Source: Dimorphilus gyrociliatus (lineage: Eukaryota > Animalia > Annelida). From it: a stretch of DNA of 40,313 bases. The notes beneath the pieces were generated by a model that was not told the origin of the DNA, did not search any database, and saw nothing but the letters and a program-made list of their open reading frames with translations. The stretch is from positions 33,320 through 73,632 of the forward strand of contig CAJFCJ010000132.1 in assembly GCA_904063045.1 (NCBI GenBank), written 5' to 3'. Below, in pieces: positions 7,120 through 40,313 of this stretch; the stretch's first letter is position 1, and each line of letters starts with the position of its first letter. The position numbers and the translations under genes are program-made.

Positions 7120-8858
7120 TCATTTTCCTTGGTGTTGTCTGTAATTTTGAGAAGATTTTCTGTCCTTAAGGAAACATTTTCCAAAAATAATGCATTCTGT
7201 CTTCTTTCTCTTCTTCAGAAGCTTAAGCTTTAATTCAGGTAACACATTTGAAAATGGTGAACATTTTTGATAATCATCTAAAATACACTCAGAAACATGG
7301 ATATTATTCAAATTTTCTGGTAATTTCCATCTATTAAATGTTCCTTTACTCAATTCTAGATTTTTAAATAGAATAATTCTTTCATTTTGGCAGCCATGTT
7401 TTAAAATATTTTCAATTTCTGTAATAAATTCATTATTACAATTACAAAAATGTAAATCTAGTTTCTTCAAAGTGTTCAATGACATTTGAAGTCCTTCACA
7501 AATATTCAATATTCCATTATTCATGTTCAAATTCCTAGATAAATTTATTGCTTCTATTTTAGAGCATTGCCTTAGTAAATTTCCAATCTGTGTACTCTGT
7601 TCTTCATTTAAATTACAGGTATGAAAATCAAGATTCTTTAAAGTGACTGATGACATTTGAAGTCCATCACAAATGTGCATTAATCCATTTCCCATAAATT
7701 TATTCTTGGCTAAATTTATATTCTCTGTTTTATAACAATGTTTTAGTAAATTTCCAATCTTTGTACTCTGTTCTTCATTTAAATGACAATCATGCATATC
7801 AAATTTCTTTAAAGTGTTTGATGACACTTGTAGTGCATCACAAATGTGCATTAATCCATTTCCCATAAATTTGTTCTTGAATAAAATTATTGCTTCTATT
7901 TTGGAACATTGTTTTAATAAATTTCCAATCTTTGCACTTTGTTCTTCATTTAAATTACAGGAATGAAAATCTATATTCCTCAAAGTGTTTGATGACACTT
8001 GTAGTCCATCACAAATATGCATTATCCCATTTCCCATGAATTTATTTAGTGATAAATTTATTGCTTCTATTTTAGAGCATTGTTTTAATAAATTTCCAAT
8101 CTGTATACTCTGTTCTTCATTTAACTGACAATCATGCGCATCAAATTTCTTCAAAGTGTTTGATGACACTTGAAGTCCTTTACAAATATTCTTCACTCCA
8201 TTACCAATTTCTTTATTCTTGCAAAGAATAATTGTGTCAATATGGAAGCAATGAGTCAGCAAATTTCCAATCTGTATACTTTGTTCTTCGTTTAAATTAC
8301 AAGAATGGAAGTCTAGTTTCTTTAAATTATTCATTGCTTTTTGAAGTTTTGAAGAAACATTCCATATTCCATGCCTAATCTTTGTATTCTCAGATAAATT
8401 GATTGTGTCAATTTTAGAGCAATGTCCCTTTAAATTTTTAACCTTTCTATTTTGTTTTTTATTTATATTACTAGAATGGAAAGTAACACTTTGAAAAGTG
8501 TCTAATGACAATTGAAGTCCTTCACAAACATCAAATATTCCTTCATCCATTTTCTAAGGCCACAGAGATTTCTTTTCACAAAATATTCTTGGTAATAACT
8601 AAAGAATTGTTAGATTTTTCAAAATATTTCAATCAGTTTACAAATTTTTAGAGTCATTAACAAATACTCAACAACATTCAAATTATTCCTTGATAGTGAT
8701 ACAATTTTTCTTGTATTCTTACCTTTAGTTTTATATATTTCACAAAAGATCATGTAATTTCCTGGTTTCAAAATTTTTAATATTATTGCAAAATGGTAAA
8801 AATTTATTATTTTGTAAAAGGGTATCTCTAAATCATAGACAGGAAATTGCCATAGCAA
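7120..8858 (-). CDS. RI-type (NLR-like) LRR protein: 476-aa open LRR block with frameshifted upstream region
   Basis: ORF 7120-8550 has alternating 28-aa (LxxLDFHSCNLNEEQS..) and 29-aa (IEAINLSxNKFMGNG..) repeats, about six 57-aa pairs, as in ribonuclease-inhibitor-class LRRs. The upstream region 8550-8858 is in other frames with stops. No NACHT motif seen. Confidence 0.85.
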
Positions 8859-10156: not shown

Positions 10157-10494
10157 TTATCTTAGTATTCTCAAATTACAACATTTTTGTAGTATATTGT
10201 CAATATTTGTTGATTGATTTTCAGTTAGATAACAACAGACTAAACCAAGATATTTCAAAGTATTCCGTGATTGAATTAATCCATGACAAATTGATAATAT
10301 ACCATTTCCCATATTTCTATTACCAGTTAATTCTAGTATTTCTATACAGTAACAATTTTGCAGTAATTTTCTGATAAATATTGATTGATTTTCAGTTAAA
10401 TTACACCATCTAAACTGGATACTTGTTAAGTGATTTGATGATTGGACAAGTCCATCGCAAATATAGGATATACCATTTCCCATTTCCTTATTAG
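10157..10494 (-). pseudogene. RI-type LRR fragment truncated 5' by an LTR-like repeat
   Basis: NKEMGNGISYICDGLVQSSNHLTSIQFRWCNLTENQS...ELTGNRNMGNGILSICHGL... It begins exactly where homology to LTR-like family B ends. Confidence 0.8.
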
Positions 10495-10835
10495 TCACAA
10501 CGAACGCAATTCTGGCAAAAATTTATCAAGGAACCGCCAGTATTTCGTGCAAAGAGTATGTATTGAGCATAATGAGTTTTAGTTCTAAACAAACAAGTTT
10601 AAACAACTAGCTAACAGTTAAAACTGAACTGACGAACTGAGGAAATGCATTTCCTTTTATACATTTACCAAAGCTTGGGTTTAATTGTTCAAAGGATCGC
10701 AAAGTTGAAATGTAATGATCTTACAAAGAACGTACAACAAAGGTATGAAAAACAGTTATATCATATAGGTTATGCATGCGATACTTCGAAAACAAGCCTT
10801 AGTTTTCAGCATCTGTTATTGAATAAGATGTAACA
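10495..10835 (-). repeat. Solo-LTR-like repeat, family B (5' part)
   Basis: Starts TGTTACATCTTA on the minus strand. Near-identical over about 150 nt to 19255-19410; contains CCCAAGCTTTGG and a TATAAAA box. Confidence 0.6.
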
Positions 10836-19090: not shown

Positions 19091-19480
19091 TGTACTGCCT
19101 TGTACTGTAATTGTAGGAATCTTGAGTTCGTTACGATTGAATTCGTCCTCACCAATCATTTACCAATAAACCAAAGTACTGGTCCAAATAGAACCTTTCA
19201 AGTTCATCCCACAGGTAGTCTCAACAAACTCAATTCCAGCAAAAATTAATCAATGAACTGCCAGTATTTCGTGCAAAGAGTATGTATTGAGTATAATGAG
19301 TTTTAGTTCTAAACAAGCAAGTTCAAACAACAAGCTAACAATTAAAACTGAACTGACGAACTGAGGAAATGCATTTCCTTTTATACATTTACCAAAGCTT
19401 GGGTTCACTTGGTCAAAAGATTATGAAGTTGAAATGTAACAGTCTCATAATGCACACATAACAAAGACATGAAAAACTAT
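19091..19480 (-). repeat. Solo-LTR-like repeat, family B (3' part)
   Basis: Shares sequence with 10495-10750 and ends GGCAGTACA on the minus strand. The composite of copies has TG...CA termini. Confidence 0.6.
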
Positions 19481-19500
19481 TGCATCACTTCTGGCTGACA

Positions 19501-20051
19501 TGTTGTACTGCTCTTGCTGGCAAAATCTATGTGTTTGCAAGTTATAACAATACTGGTTCTACTCGAACCTTTAAACAAATGTTTAAATTAAAACGGTTTA
19601 TTCGCAATAATAATACTTAAGCAAGTAACAATATGAGAGTTTGATAGCAGAGTAGATAGTTCGTAAAAGCAGGTTGCCAAATTACCAAACTGTCTTCCAA
19701 TGTTGAGGAGTAGATGGATGGTTCCAGTGGAGGTTGTTTCCAGGTGATTTTCCCAGGTCCTTGGGTCCAGATGGAAGCTCCATGCCAAATGAGAATAGTG
19801 AGGATTTATATACTTTGAGGTTTGCCTCTGACATCCAATCATCACTTTACATTTGCCAAAATGTGTAGTTCATATTTATCCATATTAGTAACATCCTGTT
19901 ACTAGGTTCAACATTTAGGAAGGTTAATTGAATTATAACTTGGCCACACCCTAGGCAAGTTAATTAAATTATAACTTGGCCAAACCTTTATTGGTAATTA
20001 AAGATGAGCCTTCAAGCTGACTAATCAGACTTATGTTTGCCCAATGTTATA
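19501..20051 (-). repeat. LTR-like repeat, family A (copy 1)
   Basis: Inverted, highly similar copy of 35821-36335. Has an internal tandem duplication (ggccaagttataatt), reverse CCAAT, TATATAAA and AATAAA; termini TATAACA...ACAACA. Confidence 0.75.
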
Positions 20052-20089
20052 GTAAAAATAAAAACACAAGTAAAAATTGAGAACATTTG

Positions 20090-22360
20090 TTATTCTTTTT
20101 TTATCATGCTTAAGTCACAAACTATTTCTGTTGAATATATTGGTGAACATTGTTTAATTACAGCTAATTCTCCCATCTGACTACTGTGCATTCCCAACTC
20201 ATTTGTTAACACTGTGGTCAATTGAGGATCCAAATTTGCCAGTAATGCCACCATCCTGCTTCTTTGAACAAATTGATTGCAGAGAAGACTTGACAGCTGT
20301 TGGGTAAACTTTTTTAAATTCTTAAAATTTGAATCAATGCCATGTAGTAAGGTAGATGTTTGGGCAGCTTCTCTCATTTCCAGTGGGAATTTGTGGTATG
20401 GGTTTTTACTTATATTATGTTTCAGTTTTGCTTCCTTCTTCATCTGCTTTTTAGCCATTCGCATGTGTAGAGTAAAATAAATTCCTTCATGGGTAATCTT
20501 AAATTCTCTGGCTGGTGGTCCTTTATACCATATGCCCAATGTTGGTAAAACCTTCTGTTTGATTCTTTTCTCACTGTATACATATTTTGAAATCGTAACA
20601 GATTGTCTTGTTGCCCTTGTCCAATTGACTGCTTGCAGCATTTCTTGGATATAATAGTTATCCAGCTCCCAGTAAGATGGACTAATGGGTTGTTGTAGAT
20701 GATATATCACAACTTCCTTGAGTGTGCCTTTATTTCTCATTAGTTTATACTTTGTGTTTGTTTCTCTATACCATTGGTTAAGACTTGGTAAGGGGCTGTT
20801 TCTCTTGTATAGTATAATTTGTTCTTTCACTTTTTTGGGATAGTTTAATAGTCATTTTTCTTCATTTTTTCCAATCTTTTGATTTTGTAGCAAATTGTAT
20901 AGGTGTTCCTTGCCTGTTTCGTGTATTAAACTCTGTTTCTCCAGTGGTACTAGCACTTTTGTTCCAGGGCCACCAATTCCATCAATGAATTTGTCTTGAT
21001 AAGGGATGTCCAGAATAGAATACCCTGGACAAGAATAGTGACCAGCAAATTTCATACAACTAATTCTGTTGCTAATTTTTATCCATGGTGATTGTTGCCC
21101 AAGTGTGTAATTATTCTTGAGGTTTCTAAAGACAATAATTGCCTCTTCTGTCTCACAATAGGACTGCCCTGGTAAACAATCTTCCAGGTAGTCCAGATTA
21201 GTTGTAATTTTCATATTAGGAGGCTGCCAATATGTTTTGCCAAACTGGATAATTGTGGTGTATTCCAGCACCTTGGTAGTTGTTGGCCATGTGTAGGCAG
21301 CAGGAAACTGATCTTGGTGGATCCAAGTGTTTCTTTTCACCATTAAAGGTTTTCCTTGAAAAGATTGTTTATCTTTTACCATCTGTCTGCATTGATCATG
21401 AGTTACTTTAATAACTGAGTTAACAATTCTCCTCTTCTTCACTCCAAAGAAATAGTAAGTGTAAAAGTTAGTTCTTAGATACACTTGACATTTTACTGCT
21501 CTTGTTTCAATTTCTTCCAAGTTCAATTCATAGATATCAGCTGTAATTGTCTTGGTTTCTTGTGATTCTATATTACAAGTTGGCTCATCTGCTAGATCAA
21601 ATGCTTGGCTTGGTAGTTGGTTAGAACAAAAGTATAATGGTGGTTTAAATGTTAAGGTAATGTTTGCACTTGTAACATGTGCACCTTGGTAGGATGGTTT
21701 TGGAACTGTTATTGAGTGGATGCAGCCACAGATCACCATTACAGTCATCACTAGTGGAAGCCACAACATCTGTTTCATGTTAGCTCTTCCTGTGTTGGCT
21801 ATAGTTGAATGGTTGAAAATTTTGTGTTGTTGTTCCACTCTGATAGTTATTCCATCTTCTAACTCCATATATTGTGTTTTCACTTCTTGTTGGGAATCTA
21901 ATTGTTCAGAGATGATTTTAGTCTCATCTAGAAATATGACTGATTCATTGTCTGTGTCACTTGTATTTTCTTTCTCATCTTGGGATGAATCTACCACTAT
22001 GATGGACTCATTATCTGAATGGGTTATGTCAATAATTTCACCTTCAATAATTGTTGACTCATTATCAGAATGGGTTATATCAATAATTTCACTTTCAATA
22101 ATTATTGACTCATTGTCTGAACTAGGTATTTCATCTTCTCTATCAGAGATAATGTTTGCCTCTGAATATGTATTTTGATCCAGTTCATTATTTGTTTCTG
22201 GGTCATCACTTTCAGATGAGCTTGAGGGTTCATTGAGACTGTAATTACTGTCTGTTTCAAAAGTATTGCTTGTGTCATAACCAGTATCAGAATTAGTAAC
22301 TTCCATCTCTGAGTCATCACTGTCTGAACATTCTGATGAAGAGTCATACTGTCCCATCAT
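20090..22360 (-). CDS. env: Acidic spacer + internal signal/TM + class III fusion glycoprotein ectodomain (gB/chuvirus G-like), one in-frame stop
   Basis: ORFs 20852-22360 and 20090-20830 are in the same frame, separated by one TGA. Hydrophobic MLWLPLVMTVMVICGCIHS, then a Cys-patterned ectodomain with AVKC..TNFYTYYFFG..VTHDQC, and LCNQ..LDP..GELAVIKQCSP. Confidence 0.8.
21923..22123 (-). repeat. 51-bp coding tandem repeat (SDNESxIIExEIIDITH), SIM-like array
   Basis: Units 22004-22054 and 22055-22105 plus a partial 22106-22123, followed by SDNESIIVVD and DNESVIFLDE. Confidence 0.85.
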
Positions 22361-22362
22361 AG

Positions 22363-22770
22363 CTATAGTGACTTGTTTAGTTGAGGTTGCCTTATTCTTT
22401 CAGCCAGGTTCCCTTTATTTCTATCAAATTTGCGAGAACACTGTTTAGCTTCAAAATTGAGGTTTGCTCCCACAGTTTGTAGGAAATCACAACCAAGTAT
22501 TATTGCCATGTGTAGATTTTCCATAACAATAAATTCTTGTTCCATACTTTCTCCAGCAAATTGGATATTCAGCTTTATGCTTTCTTTTTACTTTAAAGCT
22601 TTCCCATCAGCTGAAGTTATAATTGGTAAGCCAATTGTTTCTTTATCCATAATTGTAACATCCATTAACTTGATTTCTTTTTCAGTAATAAAGGATCTCA
22701 ATGCTCCTGTGTCACACAAGGCAATGACTTCTCTGCCTTTGTGATTCTTCAAATGGAATTGGAAGTCATT
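22363..22770 (-). CDS. Second retropepsin-type aspartic protease, C-terminal to integrase (one in-frame TAA)
   Basis: VIALCDTGALRSFI (DTGA at 22702-22713), TSADGKALK*KESIKLNIQF...FIVMENLHMAIILGCDFLQTVGANLNF. The two ORFs (ending 22588, starting 22545) are 42 nt apart in the same frame. Confidence 0.85.
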
Positions 22771-22874
22771 TCTTCCTTCTACCTGAGAAAGATATTGGAG
22801 GTGTGTTATTTCCTTCTCCACAAGGTGAAAGATTGTTGTTGTTTCTTTCCCTGTTTCCAACTTATTAGATTCAT

Positions 22875-24204
22875 TGGCTAGTCTTAATCTGCTACCATGT
22901 ACAAACTTACATGTATTATCATCCATTTGTATTTCATATATCCACTTTTGATGATTGACTTTTGTTATTTGGTATGGGCCTAACCATTTTAAAGAAGGCA
23001 TTTTTGTTATTGCAATTCTTGCACCATCATTTCTTAAGAATATTTCATCATCAACCTCAAAATATTTTGGAAGATTGAGATTTCTATTCTTTCTTTCCCT
23101 ATATTGTTCTTTTGCCATGATGGATTTACAGAAGGCTGTAGCTCTTAACTGTACCAATTGCTGCTGGTGATTGAATACAAATAGTATGTTTGTTTCAGGA
23201 GAGGTAGTATGCATTGTTACATCAATCAGTGTTCTTGTGCTGGTGCCAAAAAGAAGTTCCTGTGGTGGTAGTCTTGTACTTCCTACAGGTGATTGATTCA
23301 GAAATGCTTGAATCAAGGGTAGGTTTGCAACCCAGTTATGCTGATTTTCTTCCACCACTAATTTATTGATTTCCTTCCTCTCTTCTCTATTTCTTCTTTC
23401 AACTAGTCCATTGCTCTGGCTTCTATAAGCTGTTGTTTGGATTTTCTCAATACCTAATACCTCCATAAACTCTTTAAAAGCTCTACCAACAGAGTTTCTT
23501 CCTTGATCTGTCAACATTTGTTTTGGAATTCCAAAAATGGGAAAAAATCTGTTGAAAAGACGATTTGCAATTTCTTTACTGGTTTGCTGTTTGAGTGCAT
23601 TTAAAACTGTGTATCTACTGAAATGATCCACTATCACAAGTATGAATCTGTATGACTTAACCATGGGTAAGGGTCCAATTATATCCATGGCCACCAACTC
23701 CATTGGTGATGCAGGGTGAAAGGTTTCTACCAAAGGGTATACTCTACTCCTACCATTCATTTGTTCACACAAAGTGCAATCCTTTATTGAATTCTCAATC
23801 ATAATATTTAATTTTGGGTGCCCAAAGGTCTTTGTAATTATTTGTAATGTCATTCTGGGTCCATGGTGATTGTGAATTTTATTTTTATGGAATTTAGGGA
23901 GCAGAGTTAGCATCAAATGGTCAGGTAAAACCAGAATGTTTCTTTTTTCAAGGATAATCCAGATCATTTCCATGTGAACAAACATCTCCATTATGAAAGG
24001 TGTAAAAGTTCCAAAATAAGGAATAGGTAGCTGACCATCCAGTGTTAAATATTCTTTAATTGATTTCAAATTCACATCTTTTTCTTGCTCTGACAGTAAG
24101 TCAACAGAAGACAAATCAATTTTCTCTTCACTGTTATCACTGGTAGCTACAAAAGTTAGATCTGGTGTATGTTCATACTGTTCCATTTTAACTGAAATAG
24201 AGGG
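22875..24204 (-). CDS. pol: Gypsy integrase (HHCC, DDE, GPY)
   Basis: FHKNKIHNHHG...DCTLCEQ; VAMDIIGP, LTDQGRN, GLVERRN; WLGPYQI; VHGSRLR. Confidence 0.95.
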
Positions 24205-24216
24205 AGAAGGGATCCA

Positions 24217-24277
24217 GACAGTTGACCCCCGGACAGTTGACACCCTTGAGGACAGTTGACCCCCTTTAGGACAGTTT
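24217..24277 (+). repeat. MULE left terminal subrepeat array (GACAGTTGACCCCC x3 + partial)
   Basis: Copies at 24217, 24232, 24251 and a partial copy at 24270. Confidence 0.9.
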
Positions 24278-24756
24278 ATTTATATTAACATTGTTTAGAT
24301 GTATTGTTATAATTAAGATTGTAAAAAAGTTAATTTTCAAGGAAAATTTCATATAATCAATTTATTAGTTTTTTTTTAAATTTTTTACACTGAATAAGAA
24401 AAATAAAAAAATCATTTAAAATTTTCAATTTTCAATTTCTCTCCATTTTCTAGATTGAAGAGAAATCTTCAGAGAAGAAGGCAGTAAAATTTACTTCCTT
24501 TTTAAATATCACTCAATTTGAGGTAAGTCACTTTAGTATTTATTTTTGATTTTTTGTGATTAATTAAATTGTTAATATTATATTGTATATTATATATAAA
24601 TGTAAAATGTTATAATACTGATTTTGACAACATTTTGTTGAAATTGTTGGTAAATATTGAATTTTTTCATGTTTTTCATTTGTCTACATAATCAGCATAG
24701 ATATATTCTTCATTTAAAATATTAGAAGGGAATTTTGATACATTTCTATCCAACAA

Positions 24757-26952
24757 ATGGCTTCCAAATGCTTATACTGCAAACAAATGATTTTTTCAAA
24801 CCAAATGAATAAGACATGTTGTTTATGTAAACATGTTTTTCATGAGGACTGCCTCAAAGGTCTGTATTATTGTATCCACTAATTCATATAACTCAGTTTC
24901 TAAAATAAAGGCCAACACTATTGCAATATTTGCAAAAACATAAAAACAACAACATGCCAGATTCAGTTAGCTCAAATGTCCAAGCACTTTATGGTACAAA
25001 ATGCCAATCAGCTTGTAGTAGAAAAAATACAAGTTCAATCTGAATTGAAAAATGAAAAGAAGCTAGAAAATGGTAATGAACTGGAAAATGGCAATGAACT
25101 GGAAAATAGCAATGAACTGGCAAATGGCAATGAACTGGAAAATGGTAATGAACTTCAAATAAGAACAATGGACTTTAAACAAAATGAAATAACTGATATA
25201 GAATCTTCTGGAATTGAAAATTCAACTGACACCTGTTCAAATAAACAACAATTTGATAATCAAGAGGTTAGTGTTTTAGAATGACATTTAATTTATTATT
25301 GTTTAAAATTTGAAATTTAACATTTAGCTTGAGCTTTCATTTGATTTTTCACATGAAAGTTCAATAGATGCTGAAGAATCATCTGATGACAATTATGAGC
25401 CAAAGAATCTCACAAATTCTATCAATGTTTCTGATGAAAGTTCTTTTGAGGTGACACCCAGTCAATCAACAAAACAGTCAGAAAAGCAAGGCTTTGAAAT
25501 TATCAAAGAAGGATCAAGAAGAGGCAAAGATCTATTGACAAAAAATGGCTTTACTTTTGCAGTGAAGAAGAAATCTGACAGACAAACAACTTGGTGCTGT
25601 AGTAAAAGAACAGGAAAGTACAAATGTCCAGCCATTGTTCTACAAAAAGGATCACATTTTTTAGAAAAAGGGCAACATTCACATCCAAAAACAAGTGCCA
25701 ATGAAGTTGAAGCACAAATGAGAAAAGTTGTAAAAGCAGAGATTCAACAAAATTTCAATAACTCAGGAAAAAAATTGCAGAGATTACTCTTTTGAAATTT
25801 TTAGATCAAAGTAAGAAACTTCCACTTATTGAAAGCATGAGAAGAACAGCAGACAGATACAAAGGAAAATTGAGACCTAGCAATCCAGCTGATCTTTCAT
25901 TTACTTTGAACAATGATTTTGTTCCTGAAAATCTTTTAATAAAGGATATTAAAAAGGATGATGCAAGATATATCATTTTTGGTAATAATCATCAAATCGA
26001 ATTGTTGAAACAAGCAAAAATATTATTTATGGATGGAACCTTCAAAGTGATTTCAGGACCATTTCAACAGCTTTTCACAGTTCATGCTTTCATAAAGAAA
26101 AATGGAAATTATAAGCAAGTTCCTCTAGTTTATGCTTTTATGAGCCAAAGAAAGAAAAAATCTTATAAAGCTGTTTTCAAGGTAAATATATATATATATC
26201 ACATTTTCATGAATTACACTACATATATTTCAGGTGTTAGCTGATGTTTTAGATGGTCATCAACCAAAAAAAATAGTAGTTGACTTTGAGGCAGCCTTAT
26301 GGAAGGCCATTGAAGAAATGTTTCCAACAACAACGATTCAAGGATGTGTTTATCATTTTAAAAATGCAGTTTTTAAGAAAATACAAGTATTCATTATATA
26401 AATAGTCATTTGAGAAATACAAAAGTTTTTTATTTATTGAAGCATCTTGGATATGTAAAAGATTATAAAGAAAAAAATTATGGAGGTGAAATGCTTAGAA
26501 AAATAATGTGTTTACCATTCTTACCTGCTAACATCATTAAAAGACAATTCAAAACTATTAAAGGAGAACTTGTTGAGAAAAATTTATTTCTGGATTTTTT
26601 GGATTATTTTGAAAGAATCTTTATTAGAAATAATATTTGGAAAATAAATAATTGGTCAATCTACCAAGTGACCATCAGAACCAACAATGATGTAGAATGC
26701 TGGCATCATAGACTAAACAGTCACTGTGGACAAAGCATTAATTTTTACAATTTAATTTTGAAGTTAAATCATGAATCAAAGGTTGTTGCCCTTTATGAAA
26801 GGTTGTTGTCAGAGAAAAAGATATGTAGGATACAGAAAGTGAAATACAAGGAATTGCAAGGTAAAATATGTTTAGTTTGGGAAGAATTTGCAAATGCTGA
26901 TAAAACAGCTGATGATGTATTAAGAGAAATTTCCAACTTGTATTTTCCATAA
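24757..26952 (+). CDS. MULE transposase, about 658 aa: PHD finger, low-complexity linker, FLYWCH, DDE; 4 introns, one 1-nt deletion
   Basis: Exons 24757-24859, 24911-25266, 25328-26181, 26234-26386 and 26443-26952 (GT-AG introns of 51, 61, 52, 56 nt). MASKCLYC..TCCLCKHVFHEDCLKGQHYCNIC; WCCSKR..KCPA..HSHP; FMDGTF, VVDFE, GCVYH, RTNNDVECWH. One missing A in an A7 run near 25768-25774. Confidence 0.9.
25063..25152 (+). repeat. 18-bp coding tandem repeat x5 (LENGNE)
   Basis: ct(a/g)g(a/c)aaat(g/a)g(t/c)aatgaa units at 25063, 25081, 25099, 25117 and 25135. Confidence 0.95.
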
Positions 26953-27258
26953 TTTTTGAAATACAAATTTTGATGAATATGAAATTAATTATTTTAGTTT
27001 ATTTTATTATTATTAGTCTATTCTTCAAATTTCATTGTAAGATCAATGATTTATGATATGAGAGCTTGGTTTCTAAGCCATTTTTATCCAAAAATCTAAC
27101 AATTTTAAAAATGTATTTCAAACATTAATTAAAAGTAAGAGCTTATCAACTTTCAATTCTTTCAAAAAAGATGATTTTCATTGAAGTACACAATAACTTC
27201 ATGAGATTGACAGTTTTACAAGTCAAAATGCTCAACAGTCTAAGAATTAACCATCTTA

Positions 27259-27358
27259 GGGGTCAACTGTCCAGAGGGGGGTCAACTGTCCAGGGGTCAA
27301 CTGTCTGGATGGGGGTCAACTGTCCGGAAGGGGGTCAACTGTCTGGGGGTCAACTGTC
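27259..27358 (-). repeat. MULE right terminal subrepeat array (GGGGTCAACTGTC x6)
   Basis: Six copies separated by 1-5 nt spacers; reverse complement of the left array motif. Confidence 0.9.
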
Positions 27359-27370
27359 CTTTACCCTTCT

Positions 27371-29060
27371 AATCTTGTTAATGCATCTGCTCTATTTTTT
27401 CGTCCTGTCACATAGTTAATTGTAAATTTTAAATCCAATAAAGCCATGACCCATTTTGCTGTGCCAACATTCAATTTGTTTTGCTTAATGTTTGTACTAG
27501 ACTCTGATGGTCAGTATATAAAAAGAATGGCTTGTCTTGAAGGTAATGTAAAAATTTCTTTACAACCCAGTAAACACCAAATGCTTCCTTTTGATAGGCT
27601 GCATATTTCATTTGATTATTGTTGAATTGTTTTGAAGCATAGGCAATGGGTTTCATTGTTTTCTTCCCATTCTCATCTACATAAACTTGTTCAAGAACTC
27701 CTCCTACAGCTACATTCGATGCATCTGTTGTTAAGTGAAAATCTTTAGCAAAATCAGGTAGTTGTAATACAGGAGGGTTAACTACTGCATCTCTCAATTT
27801 GAAAAATGATTGCTTGGCTTCCTCAGTCCATTGCAATTTATCCTTTTTCCCATGTAGTTTCATTAACATATACAGAGGTTTAGCTACTCTTGCAAAATCT
27901 TGTATAAATTTTCTGTAATAGCCACAAAATGCAACAAAGCTTAGTAGTGAATTTGCAAACACTGGTGGCTGTAAATTATATAATTTATCTGTCTTGGACT
28001 TATCTGTTTCAATCCCCTTTTCTGATACAATGTGTCCCAAGAATTGAACTTGTTCTTTCAAAAACACACATTTACTTAGTTTAATCTTAAAATTGTACTT
28101 TTCAATCTGTTGAAGAATGGTCTCCAATGCTTCCCAATGTTGGTCCAGCAACTTGGTAAATATTATTATGTCATCAAGGTAGTTTAGGCACAAATGCTTT
28201 ACATCCTTTAGCACAAATGAATTCATTACATAACTAAAATGAGGAGGGGCATTCATTAATCCAAAAGGCATCTTAATAAATTCAAACAAGCCAAAAGGTG
28301 TAATAAATGCTGTTTTAGACCTATCTTCTTTCTTGATGTTAATGTGGTGGTATGCTCTTGTCAAATCCATTGTAGAAAAGAATTTATTTCCTCCTCCCAA
28401 ATGGTCAAAAAGATCATCTTGATTTGGCAGTGGATACTTGTTTTTAACTGTCACTTTGTTTAGTTTTCTATAATCTACACACATTCGTAGACTACCTTCC
28501 TTCTTTCTTACAAAAACAATTGATGAAGCCCAATTGCTTTTGCTTGGTTGAATAACTTTGCTTTTTACCAATTCAGCTATCTGTTGCTTACATTCTTCTT
28601 GTTTTTGAGGAGGCATTCTATATGGCCTTTGTCTATATGGTGTTGAACCTGGTTCAAGAGTTATTTCCAAGGGTGGTACCTCTGGATTGCCAATATCAAA
28701 TCTGTCTTCTGCAATAGTTTCTTTATATTTCACCAGAATTTGGGTAACTTTGTCCTTCATCTCAGGATTTTCTTGTTCAATTGTTGTCTGAAGGGTATGT
28801 ATTTGACTCTTGTTCTTTTTCATAATAAGAGGAACTGGGTAAAATCCTTTGAAAGATAAATGTTGTGTTCCAATAGGGTAATTCTTTTCTGTACCTGGCT
28901 GGAGTATAATCTGTCTCTTGCCAAAGTCAAGGGTAGCTCCATTTTGTTGTAGAAAGTCACACCCAATAATACATTGTTGTGTAATGATTTTGTTGATCAG
29001 AAAGCGTTGTTTAATAATCTTTTTGGTTTGGTCATAGGTAAAAGCCAAATTAGTGGGCAA
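27371..29060 (-). CDS. pol: Gypsy pol: protease C-half, reverse transcriptase, RNaseH
   Basis: CIIGCDFLQQNGATLDF; LRMCVDYRKLN, FSTMDLTRAYH, MPFGLMNAP, YLDDII; TTDASNVAVGGVL, KEAFGV, YTDH. After a frameshift near 27475: AKWVMALLDLKFTINYVTGRKNRADALTRLE. The catalytic DTG half of this protease was not found. Confidence 0.95.
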
Positions 29061-29289
29061 TTTCTACTACATCCCCATAAGTTTTAAATTTATGTCAATA
29101 ATTCCTATGAAAATTTGAAGCATGGTGAATAATATATATTCATACTAAAATATGAAAGCTATTTTAAGACTTCTAAAAGAACTCTAAAGCACCTAGCCTG
29201 TACTTTATGAACATCTGCTATTTTTAATGATTGTAGTTCAATTATTTTCTAAGAAGAGACAAGGTCAAGGTGGATGTTTAATCTGAAGA

Positions 29290-29700
29290 AGAAGGTAAAT
29301 GGCAGAAAAAATAGGGTTAGGTTTAGGTTAGGTTTTGTTAGGTCTTGGGGTTAGGGATTGGCACAGTCAGTACAGACTGGTAATCCCAAAAGTGCACTCA
29401 CACTTATAACCAAGATTTGGCTAAGGGTTGGTGTAGCTGAAATCAAGTGAGTAGAAAGGCCACAGTATGATCACCACCAGACAGATAATTGACAGGCTTG
29501 ATGTACCCACAGGTTGAATATAAGTGTCTTCCACTTGTGAGTTGACAAATAAAATTATCAAAATTTTCAAACTGCTCCAATCTCTATGAAATTTGGTACA
29601 GAGTTAGTCCCAATACGAACGAATCTCTGTACAAAATTTGAGCCAAATCGGCCCAACCGTTTAGGAGCTATGATGGTTTGAAAAAGACGTAGTTCCTAAG
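29290..29700. mobile_element. Possible non-autonomous (Helitron-like) element with TTAGG-rich patch and hairpin
   Basis: Degenerate ggttag repeats at about 29310-29355; 15-bp stem aaatttggtacagag (29589-29603) / ctctgtacaaaattt (29625-29639), followed by gagccaaatcggcccaaccgtttaggag. Ends not defined. Confidence 0.3.
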
Positions 29701-29703
29701 TGG

Positions 29704-30528
29704 TTGTTACACCTATTCCTGATATTCGGCAGCTGTAGCCTTAAGATCAGGTATTGTACACAACACAAATCTATTCAGATCATATGTGACTTGAACATTA
29801 TTGTGAAAGATGCTAAATGCTCAAAGCAACTATTGGCCAAGTATAAGGAGTTTATATTCTCAGTGCAGCCCATAACCCATCAGATATGTGAAATCAGCTT
29901 AAAAGATATAATATATGGCAAATGTAACACTGAACAAAATCTATTCAAGGTAAAAGATAATCCTTTGGATAGCCAGAGTAATAATGAACAGAAAATATTT
30001 ATTCATTATTCTACAAATGGATGCAAATTCAGGAAAGTTGCTGCTCAATCAATAAGATTAAAGATTTCTAATAACCTGGAAGAACCTCAATTAGACATTG
30101 AAAGACTTTCAGAACTTTTGAAATTAGGTATCAAAGAAGATGTCGGAAAAAAGGGTGTACAGCTACAGCAAGTATTGGATTATATGACAAATAAGCTTGA
30201 TCAACATTCAGATCAACTAAATTATGCAAAACAAATTGGCATTGACCCTGCAGTAACTAAATCTAGAAGATATTTTATGGCTTGGACAAAGAAACCACTA
30301 CAAACTATTATCAATTTCCTTATTCCTGCAACAACAACTGGTGCAATTGGAATGATATTGTATTGGATAAAGATGAAAGGATTACATAAAAATGTAACAC
30401 AAAGAATACTAAACAGATTCAGAAAAACAAATGACATCAAATCCATTGAGGAAGGCCAACCCTTAAGAGTTGTCAGCAGCAGGAAAGGTCAAGTTATTAT
30501 TGCCAATGTTGAACCATCAGTGGAATGA
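29704..30528 (+). CDS. env: C-terminal part of a related env-like glycoprotein (Cys-containing ectodomain end, TM, cytoplasmic tail)
   Basis: IRYCTQHKSIQIICDLNIIVKD aligns with IKQCSPIYSTEIVCDLSMIKKE at the truncated end of the minus-strand env. TM-like TIINFLIPATTTGAIGMILYWI, then a basic tail. Followed by a PPT and TGTACA. Confidence 0.7.
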   Translation: MLHLFLIFGSCSLKIRYCTQHKSIQIICDLNIIVKDAKCSKQLLAKYKEFIFSVQPITHQICEISLKDIIYGKCNTEQNLFKVKDNPLDSQSNNEQKIFIHYSTNGCKFRKVAAQSIRLKISNNLEEPQLDIERLSELLKLGIKEDVGKKGVQLQQVLDYMTNKLDQHSDQLNYAKQIGIDPAVTKSRRYFMAWTKKPLQTIINFLIPATTTGAIGMILYWIKMKGLHKNVTQRILNRFRKTNDIKSIEEGQPLRVVSSRKGQVIIANVEPSVE

Positions 30529-30534
30529 TGCTTT

Positions 30535-30548
30535 AAGGAGAGGAGAAG
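30535..30548 (+). promoter_or_regulatory. Polypurine tract of an LTR retroelement
   Basis: aaggagaggagaag, 6 nt after the env-like stop and 2 nt before TGTACA. Confidence 0.7.
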
Positions 30549-30550
30549 TC

Positions 30551-30716
30551 TGTACACTTATGAACTATAGTTTATAGATATTTTATAAATGATACTTACT
30601 ATATGATAGAAGTGTTGAAGTAGATGTTGCCTCTAGAGTAGATGGTACAGAACTGCCAGAATCAACCCCTTTTATAGGCAAAGGATAAGATGTTACATAA
30701 CAAACATGTTGACAAC
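30551..30716 (+). repeat. Start of a 3' LTR (family C), running into the gap
   Basis: Begins TGTACAC directly after the PPT; no second copy visible in the window. Confidence 0.55.
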
Positions 30717-31602
30717 NNNNNNNNNNNNNNNNNNNNNNNNNNNNNNNNNNNNNNNNNNNNNNNNNNNNNNNNNNNNNNNNNNNNNNNNNNNNNNNNNNNN
30801 NNNNNNNNNNNNNNNNNNNNNNNNNNNNNNNNNNNNNNNNNNNNNNNNNNNNNNNNNNNNNNNNNNNNNNNNNNNNNNNNNNNNNNNNNNNNNNNNNNNN
30901 NNNNNNNNNNNNNNNNNNNNNNNNNNNNNNNNNNNNNNNNNNNNNNNNNNNNNNNNNNNNNNNNNNNNNNNNNNNNNNNNNNNNNNNNNNNNNNNNNNNN
31001 NNNNNNNNNNNNNNNNNNNNNNNNNNNNNNNNNNNNNNNNNNNNNNNNNNNNNNNNNNNNNNNNNNNNNNNNNNNNNNNNNNNNNNNNNNNNNNNNNNNN
31101 NNNNNNNNNNNNNNNNNNNNNNNNNNNNNNNNNNNNNNNNNNNNNNNNNNNNNNNNNNNNNNNNNNNNNNNNNNNNNNNNNNNNNNNNNNNNNNNNNNNN
31201 NNNNNNNNNNNNNNNNNNNNNNNNNNNNNNNNNNNNNNNNNNNNNNNNNNNNNNNNNNNNNNNNNNNNNNNNNNNNNNNNNNNNNNNNNNNNNNNNNNNN
31301 NNNNNNNNNNNNNNNNNNNNNNNNNNNNNNNNNNNNNNNNNNNNNNNNNNNNNNNNNNNNNNNNNNNNNNNNNNNNNNNNNNNNNNNNNNNNNNNNNNNN
31401 NNNNNNNNNNNNNNNNNNNNNNNNNNNNNNNNNNNNNNNNNNNNNNNNNNNNNNNNNNNNNNNNNNNNNNNNNNNNNNNNNNNNNNNNNNNNNNNNNNNN
31501 NNNNNNNNNNNNNNNNNNNNNNNNNNNNNNNNNNNNNNNNNNNNNNNNNNNNNNNNNNNNNNNNNNNNNNNNNNNNNNNNNNNNNNNNNNNNNNNNNNNN
31601 NN
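30717..31602. other. Assembly gap (886 N)
   Basis: Run of n. Confidence 1.
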
Positions 31603-31869
31603 TTTCTTCTTTAGGATAATATTTAGCGTTTGCTTTTCTTTTTAAATACACATCTTTCTGTTCATATTTCTCCCTTTCTGTCTACAATATCTAATTAAAA
31701 ATTTAACATATACACACCTCTGCAACCAAACCATTCTTTGAAAAATCCATAAATAAAAAAAAGAAAAACAAGGGTGTGAATCTACCCAGGAACGTTCGGT
31801 GAGAGACAACAAGGAAAGATAAATGATAATAGATAATGACCAATTGGTAAAGGGGTTGGAAGATTAAAT

Positions 31870-32125
31870 AACCTTTTAACATGAGGGTTGAACCTAAATA
31901 ATTACTAAAGATAAATGTGACAATTTGTCAATTGTAAAGTGATGATTGGATATTAGAGGCAAACCTCAAAGTATCCAAACACTCACTAATCTTTCTAAAT
32001 CTAATTATTGTGGGAAGATCACCTGGAAACAATCTGAGATGAGATTAACCTTCTACACTCTATTGTTGGATTCTGTTTGCTAATTTGGCAACATGCTATT
32101 ATGAACTATCTACTTCGATATTAAA
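31870..32125 (+). repeat. Diverged partial copy of LTR family A
   Basis: tgtaaagtgatgattgga..agaggcaaacctcaaagtat, acctggaaacaa, taatttggcaac and gaactatctact match family A in order. Confidence 0.6.
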
Positions 32126-32411
32126 CTTAAATTAATTAAACATTATTAACAGCACAACTCAATCAAATGCTAGACAAGGGAGAAAGGTGAAGGATTTAAT
32201 TATCCAAAATCAAATGGGAAGTTGACTGATTAAGTTATACAGTACCAATACCCTATTTTTGGCCACTGCGCTTATTTCTATAATAATGAAGATTTTTTTT
32301 CTTGAACATTAATTTAACAATGCAATAATATGATATGGCAATTGTCACTTTGTAATCAATATAATCAACTAATTAAATTTTTTTTTTCACTCTTTTAATA
32401 ATAAACTTTGC

Positions 32412-35040
32412 TTATTCATCATTCTGTCTACATTTATATAGATTAATTGTTTTTAAAGTGTTTGAGGAGGATTTGAGTCCTTCGCAAATCATTTTAAATC
32501 CTTTTTCCATTTTAGAATTTTTAGACAAGTCAACATCTTCCAACACAGAACAAGATTGAAAAGCTTCTCCTAGAGAATTCGCCTGATTTTCATTCAAGTC
32601 ACAACATTTTATTTTAACATATTTTAAAGATAACTTTGAAGAGCTGAATCCTTTGCAAATACTTTTCATTCCAGCATTTCCCATCATTAGATTGTTGGAA
32701 AGGTCAATTTGTTTCAATGATGAACATTTTTTAAATGCTATTCCTAAAAAGTCTGCTTGTTTTTCACTCAAATTACAATTTGATAGGAAAATTTGCTTAA
32801 GAGTGTTTGAAGATGATTTCAATCCTTGACAAATCTTTTCAAATCCATCATCCTCCATTTTAGAATTATAAGACAAATCTACTATTTCCAAAAAACAACA
32901 TTCTTTAAGAGCTTCTCCAAGATGTTCTGCTTGGAGATAATTCAATTCACATTTGCTTGCATCTATTTTCGTCAGACTGAAAGATGACAATGTGAGTCCT
33001 TTGCAAATTGTATTAAATTTAAGTCCAACTTTACCATTACTAGAGAGATCAACATTTTCCAAAAAATAACAGTTTTGAAATGTTTCTCCTAGAGATTTTG
33101 CTTGTTTAGAATTAATGTTGCATTTAGCTATAGTTATATGCTTTAAAGTGTTTGAAGATGACTTCAATCCTTGATAAATCTTTTCAAATCCTTCATCCTC
33201 CATTTTAGAATTATATGATAAATAAACATTTTCCAATGAAAAACAGGTTTGAAATGCTTCTCCTAAACTTATAGCTTGTTTCTTATTCAATTGACATGAA
33301 ACTAAATTAATATGTTTTAAACTATGATATAAGCATTTTAATCCCTTGACAAAGCATTTTAAATCCTTTTTCTCCCATTTTAAAGTTTTTGGATAAGACA
33401 ACTTTTTCCATTGATGAATATTGTTGAAGCATTTCTCCTAGACATTGTGCTTGTTCATCATCCAATTTACATGAAGTTAAATTTATAGCTTTTAATGTTT
33501 TCAATGCATAAAATTCTTTACAAATCATTTGAAATCCATTTCCCATTTCAGAATTGCAAGATAAGTTAAGATATTCCAAACTAGAACACTTCTTTAATGC
33601 CTTTGCCAAAAATATTGACTTGACATCATTTATATTATACTGTGATAATTGAATTTCTTTCAACGTTTGAGAAGATGTTAAAAGTCCTTCACAAATTATT
33701 TCAAATCCATCATCCTCTATTTCAGAATTTCTGGAAAAATCAAATTTTTCTAATAAACAACAAACTTTTAATGTTTGTTCTAAATATTTTGCCAATGTAT
33801 TATCCAATCCACAGTGATTTATGTCAATTTCTTTTAGAGTGTTATTTGAAAGTTTGTGTCCTTCAAAAATTTTTTCAAATTCCTTTTCCATTTTGAAATT
33901 TCCAGAGAAGTCAACATATTCTAAAGAAGTACATTTACAAAATGTCTTTCCTAATTCAATTGCTTGGTGTTGCTTTATGTTTGCTTTGTGATACATTAAT
34001 ACTACTAAAATTTTCATTTGCAGATTGGAGATTTTTAAATATCATTTGTGATCCATTGTCACCCATTTTATAATTTCTAGATAAATCAACTTTTTCTAAT
34101 GAAGTAAGTTCTTTAAATGTAGTTGCTAAAAATTCAGCTTGTTCACCATTCAGGTTGCATTGTCTGATAGATATATATTTTAAATGGTCTGAAGAAGATT
34201 TTAATCCTTTACAAATGCTTTTAAATCCATTTCTCATATTTGAATTGTATGATTAATCAACATTTTCCAAAAAATTACAATGTTGAAATAGCTGTCCAAT
34301 ATAATCTGCTTGCTGATGATTTAAAATATAATTGTCTAAATTGATTGATTTTAAAGTATTAGTAAATGTAACAGTTCCTTCAGGAAAGTATCTTTTACAG
34401 TTAGATAGTGAAATTATTTGTATAGATTTACAATTTTGGAAAATGTTGTGAGCATGTTCATAAAATTTTTCATAACAAGAATGTTGATTAATATCAAAAT
34501 TTTGAATTTTTTCATAAGTTAACTCTAGTATTTTAAAACATAGACTTTCAAAATCTTTTTCACTTTTTACTTGAAATAAAACCATTGGAATATTTGTAAT
34601 TTGAATGATATCATTGGCCAATGCCCATTTTATTACATTTAAACTCTCTAAATTAAGTTCCTTTAATTTATTTTCTTCAGGAACAACTCTAATATTTGTT
34701 GATGAAATTAATTGTATCATCAAAAAGTATAGTGACTACTCTTTATTATAATCTTTGTGAGCTTTTTTGAATGAAGAGAAAGCTGTTCAAATAAGAGGCT
34801 AATCTTAACTTGTGTATTATCAAGATGTACTTCTTCCAAAAACTCTCCTTTCTTCTCAATTAACAATTTTACTATAGTATCATTTAAATTTTCAATAGTC
34901 AATTCAAGTACTTTTTCATCTGAATTAGAAGATAACTTATTTTTAACAGTTTGACTACAATCAAACATATTTCTAACAGTTTCAGAAGAAAAAATAACAT
35001 TTTCAAAGACATTTTGGGACAGGTTGAAAACAGCCGTAAA
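32412..35040 (-). pseudogene. Long RI-type (NLR-like) LRR gene broken into five ORFs
   Basis: ORFs 34720-34968, 34253-34723, 33956-34237, 33322-34017 and 32412-33401 are collinear. More than 20 repeats of type LExVDLSxNSKM..GFExICxGLKSSSNT / LKxIxLxxCNL..QA..LG. Pre-LRR region TAVFNLSQNVFEN at about 35000-35040; no NACHT motif seen. Confidence 0.85.
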
Positions 35041-35364
35041 TGAAATATTTGAAGATCAGATTTCAGGCTAGGAAATAGTTAGGAGGAATAAGATAAGTAT
35101 TCATTTGTACTTACAGAAATCCCATATAAGGGTTAGGGGCATTTAAAAAGGTTTGGCAGAAACAAGGGCTAGGTTAAGGTTAGGGTAAAACCACTGATAT
35201 ATGGCCTTTTCTACCACATCCAATTATCTTTCTAGTGTGATTTTCAAAATTTCTATATCATTTATAAAAGTATTTAGAAACTGTAACATCCTGAAACTAT
35301 GTAGAATTGCCTAAGGAATTGAAAGAATATCTTCAGTACCAAGAGAGGTGTTTAGAATGGGGCT

Positions 35365-35551
35365 GACAGAAAACATCCCCCAGTGAGATTTAAAAAAAAC
35401 ATTTTGGATTGAAAAATAGTTAGAAGGTGTAAAGTAGCTTTTGATTTATAGTTAGGGGGTTCCATCTATTAGGGCTAATCAAAAAAGTAAAGGAGTGACA
35501 AGGGATAGCTAGGGTTAGGGTTAAGCCATGCATTTGGGGACGTTTTCTGTC
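35365..35551 (+). mobile_element. MITE-like element with 17-bp inverted repeats and TTAGGG-like core (copy 1)
   Basis: gacagaaaacatcccc (35365) ... tggggacgttttctgtc (35535-35551); homologous, in inverted orientation, to 37772-37967. Confidence 0.7.
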
Positions 35552-35820
35552 ATATCCATATATATAAAAATACTCATCACAAATTCTGTTTATGATTTAG
35601 TCAAAAAAAAAAACCTTTATAAATCTTTTGTTAAGAACAGCATTATAGTTCCATTATTGGAAGCCAATAATGGCAAAAAGACAAGGCAGTGCACTATGAA
35701 TATCATGATAGCACAAATAATAAAGACCATTGTACAACTCTGGTTATATTTAACATGGTTGAACTGTATTATTTGATGCAACTTATACATGTACATCTTA
35801 AAACCTACGCAAGAAAATGC

Positions 35821-36335
35821 TATAACATTGGCCAAACATAAGTCTGATTAGTCAGCTTGAAAGCTTATCTTTAATTACCAATAAAGGTTTGGCCAAGTTA
35901 TAATTTAATTAACTTGCCTAGGCTGTGGCCAAGTTATAATTCAATTAACCTTCCTAAATGTTCAACCTTGTAACATCCTCTTACTAAACATAAATATGAA
36001 CTACACATTTCAGCAACTGTAAAGTGATGATTGGATGTCAGAGGCAAACCTCAAAGTATATAAATCCTCACTATTCTCATTCTGCATGCAGCTTCCATCT
36101 GGACACAAGGACCTGTGAAGATAACCTGGAAACAACCTCCACTGGAATCATCCATCTATTCCTCAACATTGGAAGACAGTTTGATAATTTGGCAACCTGC
36201 TATCTACTCTGCTATAGAACCTTCATATTGTTACTTGCTTAAGTATTATTATTGCGAATAAACCGTTTTAATTTAAACATTTGTATTGATATAACTTGCA
36301 AACGCATAGATTTTGCCAGCAAGAGCAGTACAAGA
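35821..36335 (+). repeat. LTR-like repeat, family A (copy 2)
   Basis: Matches the reverse complement of 19501-20051 apart from small indels; AATAAA at 36257-36262. Confidence 0.75.
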
Positions 36336-36473
36336 TGTATTTAGTTAAAATGAAGAGAGTTATATTTGCTCCTTCATTTGAAGCAACTCATGTTAAAATG
36401 TGAAAAAAACAAGACAAATGAAGTGAACAATTCTAAAAACCACAAAATATTTCAAACTTGAATAAATCATACA

Positions 36474-36850
36474 TTAAGGATGATAAATTGAACTACAGAC
36501 TTCCAGGAGTTGAGCAATATTCATTTCTGATCTTTCAAAACCTTCCCAAGCTTCAAAGACTTTTTTTTGAAGATGCTTATAAATTCTTCTCTGATTTCTG
36601 CAGATTTTCTATTCAGTTAAAAGCTTTTCAATGACATTTATCAGATCTGCTTCATGTTTCAATTTTTGAACATTTGTGTAGAATGATGTTGTATTTTCAA
36701 AAGATGAGTGAAATTTTTGGTGGAAGCCCTTCAGATCATTGTTTGTGTGAATTGCTATTATGAAACTTGAACAAGATGATGGAGGCCAAATCAGTTAAGA
36801 TAACTCGTTACATTGTTGCAAACAATCTTTTATACTTTCAAATTGTTGCT
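36474..36850 (-). mobile_element. MULE transposase C-terminal relic (third family member)
   Basis: IWPPSSCSSFIIAIHTNNDLKGFHQKF...LKHEADLINVIEKLLTE*KICRNQRRIYKHLQKKVFEAWEGF...IYHP*. Collinear with the C-terminus of the 24.8-27.0 kb transposase; the catalytic E is K here. Confidence 0.75.
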
Positions 36851-36879
36851 TGATGTGGTCTGATGGTAGAAATGGTAGA

Positions 36880-38750
36880 GAGAGGAATTGGAGCAGAAAA
36901 ACTCATCCCTGGGAAAACCTGTTCCTGGAAAAGTTGTCCCCTTTTGAAAGAGCAAGTTTTAGCATTTTAAAAGGAATAAAAGGAAAATTGTATATAATAT
37001 AGTTGATGAAAAATAGGAAATTTATCAGAGTTCACAAACTAAACACAACATACAAATGCTAAATATATGAAAATCACAATTGGAAATTTAAAGATAATGT
37101 TATTCAGAATAAATGTTTGCTGATCAAATGCTGTGATTTCACCAAATTTATATTCATCCCATTAATCAAAAATTTTCTTCTATTTTGTATTATCATTGGC
37201 CTTTGATACTTTCTTAATTTCTTTTCAGTTAAAAGTTTTTGAATAACTCGAATCAAAGCAGCTTCATGTTTCAAGCAATCAACTAATAAGTAGAAGCAAG
37301 AATTAGGCAAAGCTTTTTCATTAAGTCTCCTATGCCATGCTTCAACATCATTATTTGTGGGAATGCTCATTCCATAAACAGACTAGCTTTCTGGTGTCCG
37401 AATAGAATTTTTAGTCCAGGTATTTTCTATATATTCATACAAATCTTTATATACATTTTTCTCGAAAGCTTCTTCTTTTAAAGATGAAAAAATATGGGGT
37501 ATTACCTGAGAAGGAAGAAGAGGAAGTACCATTAAATTTCTCATCATATTTTGAGAGGCCAGCCTAGTTTTATATTCAGTTGCATATCCCAAATTCTAAA
37601 AACATGAAAATATTTTATAAATTATTATATATTCTTTGTCACGAAATACACCTGGTAATGCAGAGTTTGATATCTACCAGTTTTCCCAAAAGCAGAGCTT
37701 TAGTTTACTAACTATTGTAACTACAAAAAAAATTTTCCTCATTTTACAATATATATATTATATATGGATACGACAGAAAACGGCCCCACAAGTATGGTTT
37801 TATGCTAACCCTAAACCATCCCTAATGTATCCGTAACCCTTTTTCATTACTCCTAACCCTTAGATGGGACCCCCCTAACTACAAATCAATAAATGCTTTT
37901 TTCCTCCTAACCATTTCTTAACCCAAAATGCTGCCTTCAAATATCCTACTTGGGGACGTTTTCTGTTGATCCCATTATCATGACACCATTGAAAAAGACA
38001 TCCTATTATGTTAACATTAGGTGCTAATTCACCTATAGCGCTCCATGCACTTTCTTCAAAATCCAGCATGACAGTTGTTGGTTGAAATCCATTAGTTAGT
38101 TAAAAAAGCAGCCTATAAAATATGAACAGTATTTAAAGAAATTTAATTTGAGCATATCCTATTTACCTTGAATAATATTTTAGAATGCAAATAAGAGAGC
38201 GACTTGTTTCAATTCTGACTCTTTTTTTCAGAAATCCATGAATAGAGTATAATTGTTTGAATGGGTCATTTGCAGGTTTGAATGTTCCATCAAGAAACCA
38301 AATACTTGTTGATTTAAAATAGTCAAGGTGACAATGTGTCGCAGAAATTACAACTCTTGTTTGCTTTTCAAAAATATCCACTTTCAGGAAATTTTTCTGG
38401 GAAGAATGCTTGCTTTATAATAAATCTTAAACCAGTAGGTTCCTTTAATCTATTTTTTCTTTTGTGATAGTTAATAACTTAGATGTAATAAGACATTTTT
38501 CCCCTTAGCACTTGCTTTTTTAAGAATTTTGAATGGCTCAATTTCATTACACTATTCTTTTTCAAATACTTGATCATTTTCAGTTGAAATTTACACTTCA
38601 TTACAAAAATCAGGTACTGTTTCTGTAGTTTCTGTTGACACATTTGCAACATTTTCTTCTTCATCAACCATTTCATCTAATATTCTGTTCTCTTGAAATT
38701 CTTGAAATCTATAAAAAGAAAAATAATGTCAGATTCATTTAAAGAAGGTC
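36880..38750 (-). mobile_element. Decayed MULE element with introns, interrupted by a MITE
   Basis: PFKILKKASAKGK (FLYWCH start), WFLDGTFKP..FKQLYSIHGF, MLDFEESAWSAI..IIGCLFQW, LGYATEYK..LMVLPLLP, PTNNDVEAWHRRLN. Subterminal repeats of type ggggacaacttttcc near 36895-36945. Confidence 0.85.
37772..37967 (-). mobile_element. MITE-like element (copy 2) inside the MULE relic
   Basis: gacagaaaacggcccca (37772-37788) ... tggggacgttttctgt (37951-37966); taaccc-rich core. Confidence 0.7.
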
Positions 38751-38927
38751 ATTTAATTGTTGTATCCGTTTCATACATATTTAGATGGTCAGCTTCTTTC
38801 ATAATATATAATTAGGGATAGGCCTAAGATAAATCAATAGATGCTGGAGTTAAATTCGTAATGTTGTATTGACATTATTGAAATACATTTAAACACACAA
38901 AATTTCTACAACTGAACAAAAACATCA

Positions 38928-40244: not shown

Positions 40245-40313
40245 CTTTTTTTTTGTTTTTTAAAAAAAAATAAATACAACTCTATTCCTTTTTATATAAA
40301 ACACTTATTTTAC

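Follow-up and report, generated by a model that had tools for sequence, protein, structure and literature searches.

A second retropepsin between integrase and an env-like gene in an abundant Ty3/Gypsy family of Dimorphilus gyrociliatus

The window, that is, the whole stretch of DNA analysed here, comprises 40,313 nucleotides of contig CAJFCJ010000132.1 from the annelid Dimorphilus gyrociliatus (assembly GCA_904063045.1, positions 33,320 to 73,632). Within it lies a damaged Ty3/Gypsy element of an abundant family that carries an env-like gene. The element lies on the minus strand. Its components are ordered as reverse transcriptase (RT), RNase H, integrase, a second protease (PR2), an acidic spacer, a hydrophobic segment and an Env-like ectodomain. 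The contigs of four of the six listed public runs were aligned on window positions 19300-30716. These runs, of which X1, X2 and X5 are cited below, come from at most three studies, and the source of the window itself may be among them; the summed contig depth is a rough guide to copy number only.

The C-terminal half of the canonical protease (PR1) is seen by translation ahead of RT at ~28896-29021, as the first-pass annotation had reported. The copy is truncated above this half; Gag, the N-terminal half of PR1 and the 5' LTR are absent. Searches of the window with P0003 and P0070 as queries found no Gag. Beyond 29023, the family contigs continue with different letters in two of the four runs. 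RT and RNase H occupy 27366-28895 (translation; Pfam RVT_1, 113.5 bits; RT_RNaseH_2, 98.8 bits), and the frame is broken near the end of RNase H. The linker between RNase H and integrase is interrupted by a MULE DNA transposon on the plus strand (24209-27365), recognized by FLYWCH (34.2 bits), a weak MULE match (19.5 bits) and terminal inverted repeats. No target-site duplication was found at its ends. The MULE is private to the window copy. In two of the four runs, contigs have a joint bypassing 24209-27365, at a depth of 16,290 in X1 and 678 in X5, which bears out the earlier claim that the linker is continuous across the MULE. The linker and integrase (22880-24208) contain a zinc finger, the core and a GPY/SH3-like C-terminal module in 429 codons without a stop (Integrase_H2C2, 29.2 bits; rve, 44.6 bits). 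Translation, the Pfam matches and the MULE-free joint give the Ty3/Gypsy Pol order, PR-RT-RNase H-integrase.

The integrase frame runs without a stop into a retropepsin, PR2, at 22459-22737 on the minus strand. Translation of the window copy reveals DTGA from 22713, the flap TSADG and ILGCDFL. The lone in-frame stop inside PR2 is a TAA at 22588-22590. With X at this position, PR2 is matched by Pfam RVP (29.1 bits, E 1.3e-6, cut-off 20.7), RVP_2 (27.2 bits, cut-off 20.3) and gag-asp_proteas (28.3 bits, cut-off 28.2). Since three profiles score above their cut-offs, the match is not due to chance. PR2 has the D-T/S-G motif, the flap, the C-terminal G-x-D-hydrophobic motif and the profile score of a retropepsin, and the complete retropepsin with one TAA that had been proposed to follow integrase in frame is confirmed by both translation and profiles. 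In PDB, retroviral-like aspartic protease 1 matched PR2 weakly (E 0.53). The single-sequence structure model has an unusably low pLDDT of 33.

Downstream of PR2, a frame break in the window copy separates the PR2 tail from the acidic spacer (21791-22372), which is an open frame of 194 codons without a stop. It contains 51 D/E, 50 S/T and 6 K/R residues, and a 51-bp tandem repeat lies within it at 22005-22121. The hydrophobic segment at 21704-21760 (mean hydropathy 2.07), which is the sole segment above the hydropathy threshold across the spacer and Env, is likely an internal signal or signal-anchor of Env. The Env-like ectodomain at 20093-21703, likely of the gB/class III type, has 4 N-glycosylation motifs and, from 21730 onward, 13 cysteines. 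In the window copy it has an in-frame stop at 20852-20854 and lacks the C-terminal part; family contigs extend past 20066. The 3' LTR is at 19498-20052, with ~555 nt aligned. A second LTR copy, 88% identical to the 3' LTR, is inverted at 35820-36338. In X2 only, a contig that continues past the LTR end includes 12 nt that equal the primer-binding site given for Dgyr_errantivirus_1.

Several other features are seen in the window. Arrays of 171-174-bp repeats lie on the minus strand at 7120-8553, 10157-10522 and 32412-34735, the last with weak leucine-rich-repeat (LRR) matches. They probably represent clustered LRR genes or pseudogenes. An open frame of 284 codons on the plus strand (29674-30528), with no Pfam match above the cut-off, sits between the truncated PR1 and an assembly gap at ~30717-31602. 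Inverted repeats of 71-84% at 35026-35564 and 37759-37966, accompanied by TTAGGG-like runs, are likely old DNA transposons; similar runs are present at ~29300-29430. An open frame on the minus strand at 39475-40281 shows a weak F5/8 type C match (22 bits, below the cut-off).

In the RT search, the best 120 matches are polyproteins of 29-44% identity in which the same RT families occur, and those among them that are descriptively named are of the Gypsy type (17.6, Ty3-G, K02A2.6-like). As in gB-type errantiviruses, an Env open reading frame follows pol and has a signal segment and a cysteine-rich ectodomain. We take the Env to be putatively gB from its cysteine pattern and from papers on the host. 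The element is likely a Dingle-type errantivirus with a gB-type env. The window Env matched no Pfam family and nothing in PDB, and neither of its halves gave a usable match in ESM Atlas. Its structure model, built without an alignment, has an unusably low pLDDT of 34. No Chromo domain was found with Pfam in the integrase-PR2 protein. Word-based protein searches confirmed 0 of 430 candidates for the integrase-PR2 junction and 0 of 696 for Env. Locus searches found none in viral contigs, and none of 128 pattern matches in metagenome contigs was confirmed.

PR2 is a family trait carried by abundant copies. A single X5 contig (record 18; 3,128 nt, depth 678) reaches from the spacer through PR2 and integrase and across the MULE-free joint into RNase H. 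In X1, the depth is 29,326 at PR2, 31,884-39,027 in the bins of the integrase core and 21,554-39,421 at RT; at the MULE it is 184-2,022. The MULE-free contigs and the match between the depth of PR2 and that of RT and integrase support the earlier claim that PR1 and PR2 are parts of one element. Compared with the window, X2 contigs show differences at 5 of 198 positions in PR2, 7 of 346 at the integrase/PR2 junction, 9 of 311 near RT and 19 of 730 in env. The divergence is similar, 2-3.5%, in PR2, the junction, RT, the spacer and env. Such equal divergence in PR2, the junction, RT and env indicates that PR2 is as old as the rest of the element. The integrase-PR2 junction is also crossed by X1 record 4, a contig less similar to the window (96 differences in 574 nt). 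In three of the four runs, high-depth contigs are free of the break that separates PR2 from the spacer frame, and the fourth has no depth there. Thus, Pol, PR2, the spacer and Env are in one frame in high-depth copies.

There is also a sister subfamily without PR2 and the spacer. In the X1 contig that represents it (record 2; depth 795, ~80% alike), the distance from the integrase C-terminal module to the env start is 245 letters, compared with 1,282 in the window. PR2 is thus not required, as the sister subfamily does without it. In the main X5 contig, 60 nt of PR2 (window 22625-22684) are missing. On the plus strand, antisense to the element, the missing segment starts with GTAAG, continues with a pyrimidine tract and ends with CAG. 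This look of a canonical short intron suggests an antisense intron. The median intron of D. gyrociliatus is given as 66 bp in the text of the genome paper (PMC7854359). Alternatively, the gap could be an in-frame deletion; if it is genomic, PR2 would be dispensable there. Another X5 contig begins at a likely intron boundary of the MULE (25326) and ends near another. X5 may represent RNA, with the family transcribed and spliced antisense. A diverged deletion form joins window position 22347 to 28458 (depth 1,331 in X1 and 27 in X5). It fuses the start of RT to the acidic spacer, so that most of Pol and PR2 are lost and the spacer is still beside env.

The integrase tail and PR2 together, used as a HMMER query against 1.84 billion representatives, returned 68 matches, in none of which the best stretch covers both parts of the query. 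The top PR2 match is P0002, the D. gyrociliatus gene model DgyrCDS14462, with 47 of 72 residues identical (65%). P0002 is a chimeric gene model. It has no stop at the place aligned to the window stop, and ~40 residues past its GCDFL it matches the spacer start (8/18); the distance in the window is ~44 codons. With no stop and a continuation into the spacer start, P0002 probably represents the PR2 of a subfamily that has diverged. The gene model fuses the PR2-like fragment to a TIR-domain protein; it is likely mis-joined, and an exonised fragment is possible. Another match, P0003, is identical to PR2 at 44 of 109 positions (40%). It is a Gag-like protein with the N-terminal half of a protease at its end, where the Gag label is our reading of the sequence; Pfam gave no Gag match in P0003.

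Two retropepsins in one polyprotein were also observed elsewhere. Among the fetched proteins of at least 900 aa (n=137), integrase is present in 112, and 23 carry a protease downstream of it; this is a biased set and no survey. In 21 of these 23, RT follows the protease, and they were rejected as gene models across tandem elements. The remaining two, P0014 and P0070, form one cluster. P0070 is an unbroken 3,129-aa Gypsy polyprotein from ENA, composed of Gag, protease, RT, RNase H, integrase, chromodomain, an env-like region and a second retropepsin. The second retropepsin (~2848-2941) lies between two hydrophobic segments, on the cytoplasmic side of Env. P0070 and P0014 resemble the window element in having two retropepsins per polyprotein, the second of which is cytoplasmic and beside an env-like region. 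They differ in that the second protease of P0070 follows Env, while PR2 precedes it. P0070 also has a chromodomain, and its RT/RNase H is only 34% identical to that of the window. The second protease of P0070 is identical to PR2 at 26 of 102 positions, shows no kinship to it above the family level and is not grouped with it in the tree, so that it is likely an independent gain. The comparison of the window Env with the env-like region of P0070 gave z 1.5 for the whole (26 of 300 shuffles), z 4.2 for a hand-picked N-terminal part (2 of 300) and z 0.2 for the C-terminal part. BLASTP between the window Env and P0070 was not significant.

Retropepsins act as dimers. PR2 may free the Pol enzymes from a membrane-tethered Pol-Env precursor, a proposal for which we see about an even chance. 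Translation through PR2 and the spacer would reach the internal signal; the precursor would thereby become ER-anchored, with integrase, PR2 and the spacer on the cytoplasmic side. As retropepsins work as dimers, PR2 would become active at the membrane once the anchored precursors cluster, independently of capsid assembly. By cleaving at its border with integrase or with the spacer, PR2 would release Pol, and PR1 would be left for maturation within the particle.

The main alternative, which we consider less likely, is that PR2 is a passenger from a spacer-env cassette or a recombination slip, with its frame kept open only for the translation of Env and with no needed activity. The sister subfamily without PR2 and the in-frame 60-nt gap in X5 are both compatible with this. 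Elements with Env before Pol, as described by Chary and Hayashi (PMC13524379), could donate env-protease cassettes, and the Env-then-protease order of P0070 is a good fit to such a source. Against a passenger, the differences between PR2 and P0002 avoid the conserved protease columns and concentrate in the variable ones (permutation p 0.013), the P0002 lineage, 65% identical to PR2, retains the flap and GxDFL motifs, and the window copy has an unbroken DTG motif. The same differences are not significantly conservative (p 0.17-0.24), as a passenger would permit, and 24 changes without a stop have a chance expectation of 27-36%. The evidence for selection on PR2 is thin.

As to the origin of PR2, the first-pass annotation described the C-terminal halves of PR1 and PR2 as strikingly alike and inferred that the element duplicated its own protease. 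The first point failed, and the second is not supported. The PR1 half shares 14 of 35 residues with PR2 and ranks 8th of 68 in likeness, the highest count among unrelated proteases is 19 of 35, and GCD is present in 8 of 66 unrelated proteases; P0003 and P0005 were excluded from this comparison as they are without that half. The likeness is thus within the range of unrelated retropepsins. In a quick protease tree (76 rows, 108 columns), PR2 is grouped with P0002 from Dimorphilus and the Gag-adjacent P0003 of another family (SH-aLRT 98). PR1, whose row is 34% filled, is outside this supported group and is not placed. It is likely, from these similarities, that recombination brought PR2 in from a different Gypsy family, where it was the protease beside Gag, and that PR2 was not copied from PR1.

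An old duplicate of PR1 that has since diverged has a low probability but keeps some, since just 40 residues of PR1 are present. PR1 and PR2 both have GCDFL, and the PR1 half scores 75 against a mean of 52.8 +/- 18.2 for the PR2 matches, which were chosen for their likeness to PR2. The supported PR2 group without PR1 opposes it, as do the rank of PR1 and the 40% identity of P0003 over 109 residues, the end of P0003 being unlike the window PR1. The capture from another Gypsy family is the better reading of the sequences. A single nested insertion of PR2, or a misassembly of the window, as its decayed copy interrupted by other elements might suggest, is extremely unlikely and is rejected, because PR2 is present in X1, X2 and X5 contigs at a depth like that of the rest of the element, the integrase-PR2 junction is crossed in all three runs with one X5 contig linking both neighbours, and the 2-4% differences and the depth of the runs oppose a single source locus.

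How Pol is parted from Env in single-frame retroelements is little studied, and PR2 at the junction offers a direct, testable answer. The independent case of P0070 suggests repeated recruitment of proteases. More broadly, gB-type Gypsy elements may have recruited a dedicated membrane-side second aspartic protease beside Env at least twice, before Env here and after Env in P0070. Clustering of Env would activate the protease, and the Pol-Env precursor or the Env tail would be processed apart from capsid maturation. Such a two-protease design would be undescribed for reverse-transcribing elements. We hold this broader reading to be possible rather than probable. With PR2 and the spacer in between, integrase and the env ectodomain are ~1.1 kb apart, and the first filter of the largest survey, as its text describes it, allowed a Pol-Env gap of 1,000 nt (PMC13524379). 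Such a gap exceeds the filter and would fall into a blind spot of the survey. If PR2 is a passenger, it would still clearly document that one Gypsy family captured a protease from another.

The published elements closest to the window family are from the same host; Dingle and Dgyr_errantivirus_1 were compared by their descriptions. The genome paper describes Dingle as the most abundant class of transposable elements of D. gyrociliatus and as a Gypsy family with a gB-like Env, and also mentions MULEs in this genome (PMC7854359). Dingle and the window element share the host, the abundance, the Gypsy affiliation and an env-like gene after integrase. The text and the reviewer file of that paper name no retroelement protease, the one protease in the text being a reagent; the drawing of the Dingle domains in Extended Data Fig. 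3d may show one (PMC7854359). The HSV/gB-type "ancient errantiviruses" of Chary and Hayashi also have Pol followed by Env, with one protease in their scheme, compared with two in the window element; a protease is named once in the main text and in none of seven supplements (PMC13524379). They list one D. gyrociliatus element with a gB-type Env, Annelida_Polychaeta_Dgyr_errantivirus_1, which has the identical 12-nt primer-binding site beside the LTR (PMC13524379). In contrast to the window element, with no chromodomain match and ~555 nt of aligned LTR, it is described with a chromodomain and LTRs of ~630 nt (PMC13524379). Due to the lack of a chromodomain, the window element is not filed as Dgyr_errantivirus_1 despite the common primer-binding site.

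Errantiviruses with the GAG-ENV-POL order, for which Sacco et al. 2022 is given as a reference, are reported from nematodes, bryozoans and flatworms, and their Env adjoins the start of Pol (PMC13524379). They are the possible donors of env-protease cassettes mentioned above. Atlas virus (Belpaoviridae) resembles the window element in that Pol must be parted from Env, as it is expressed as a single Gag-Pol-Env polyprotein; it differs in its BEL/Pao lineage and its class II fusion protein, and a second protease is unmentioned in the text consulted (PMC9094657). In bdelloids, additional genes after pol are common, with no protease named among them in the text consulted (PMC5408684). The literature text searched, which excludes subscription journals, Repbase entries and figures, contains no description of a second protease in such elements. 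The layout integrase-PR2-Env is apparently an undescribed variant. Whereas the GAG-ENV-POL errantiviruses, as described (PMC13524379), rearrange their genes, the window element has the canonical order and an added protease.
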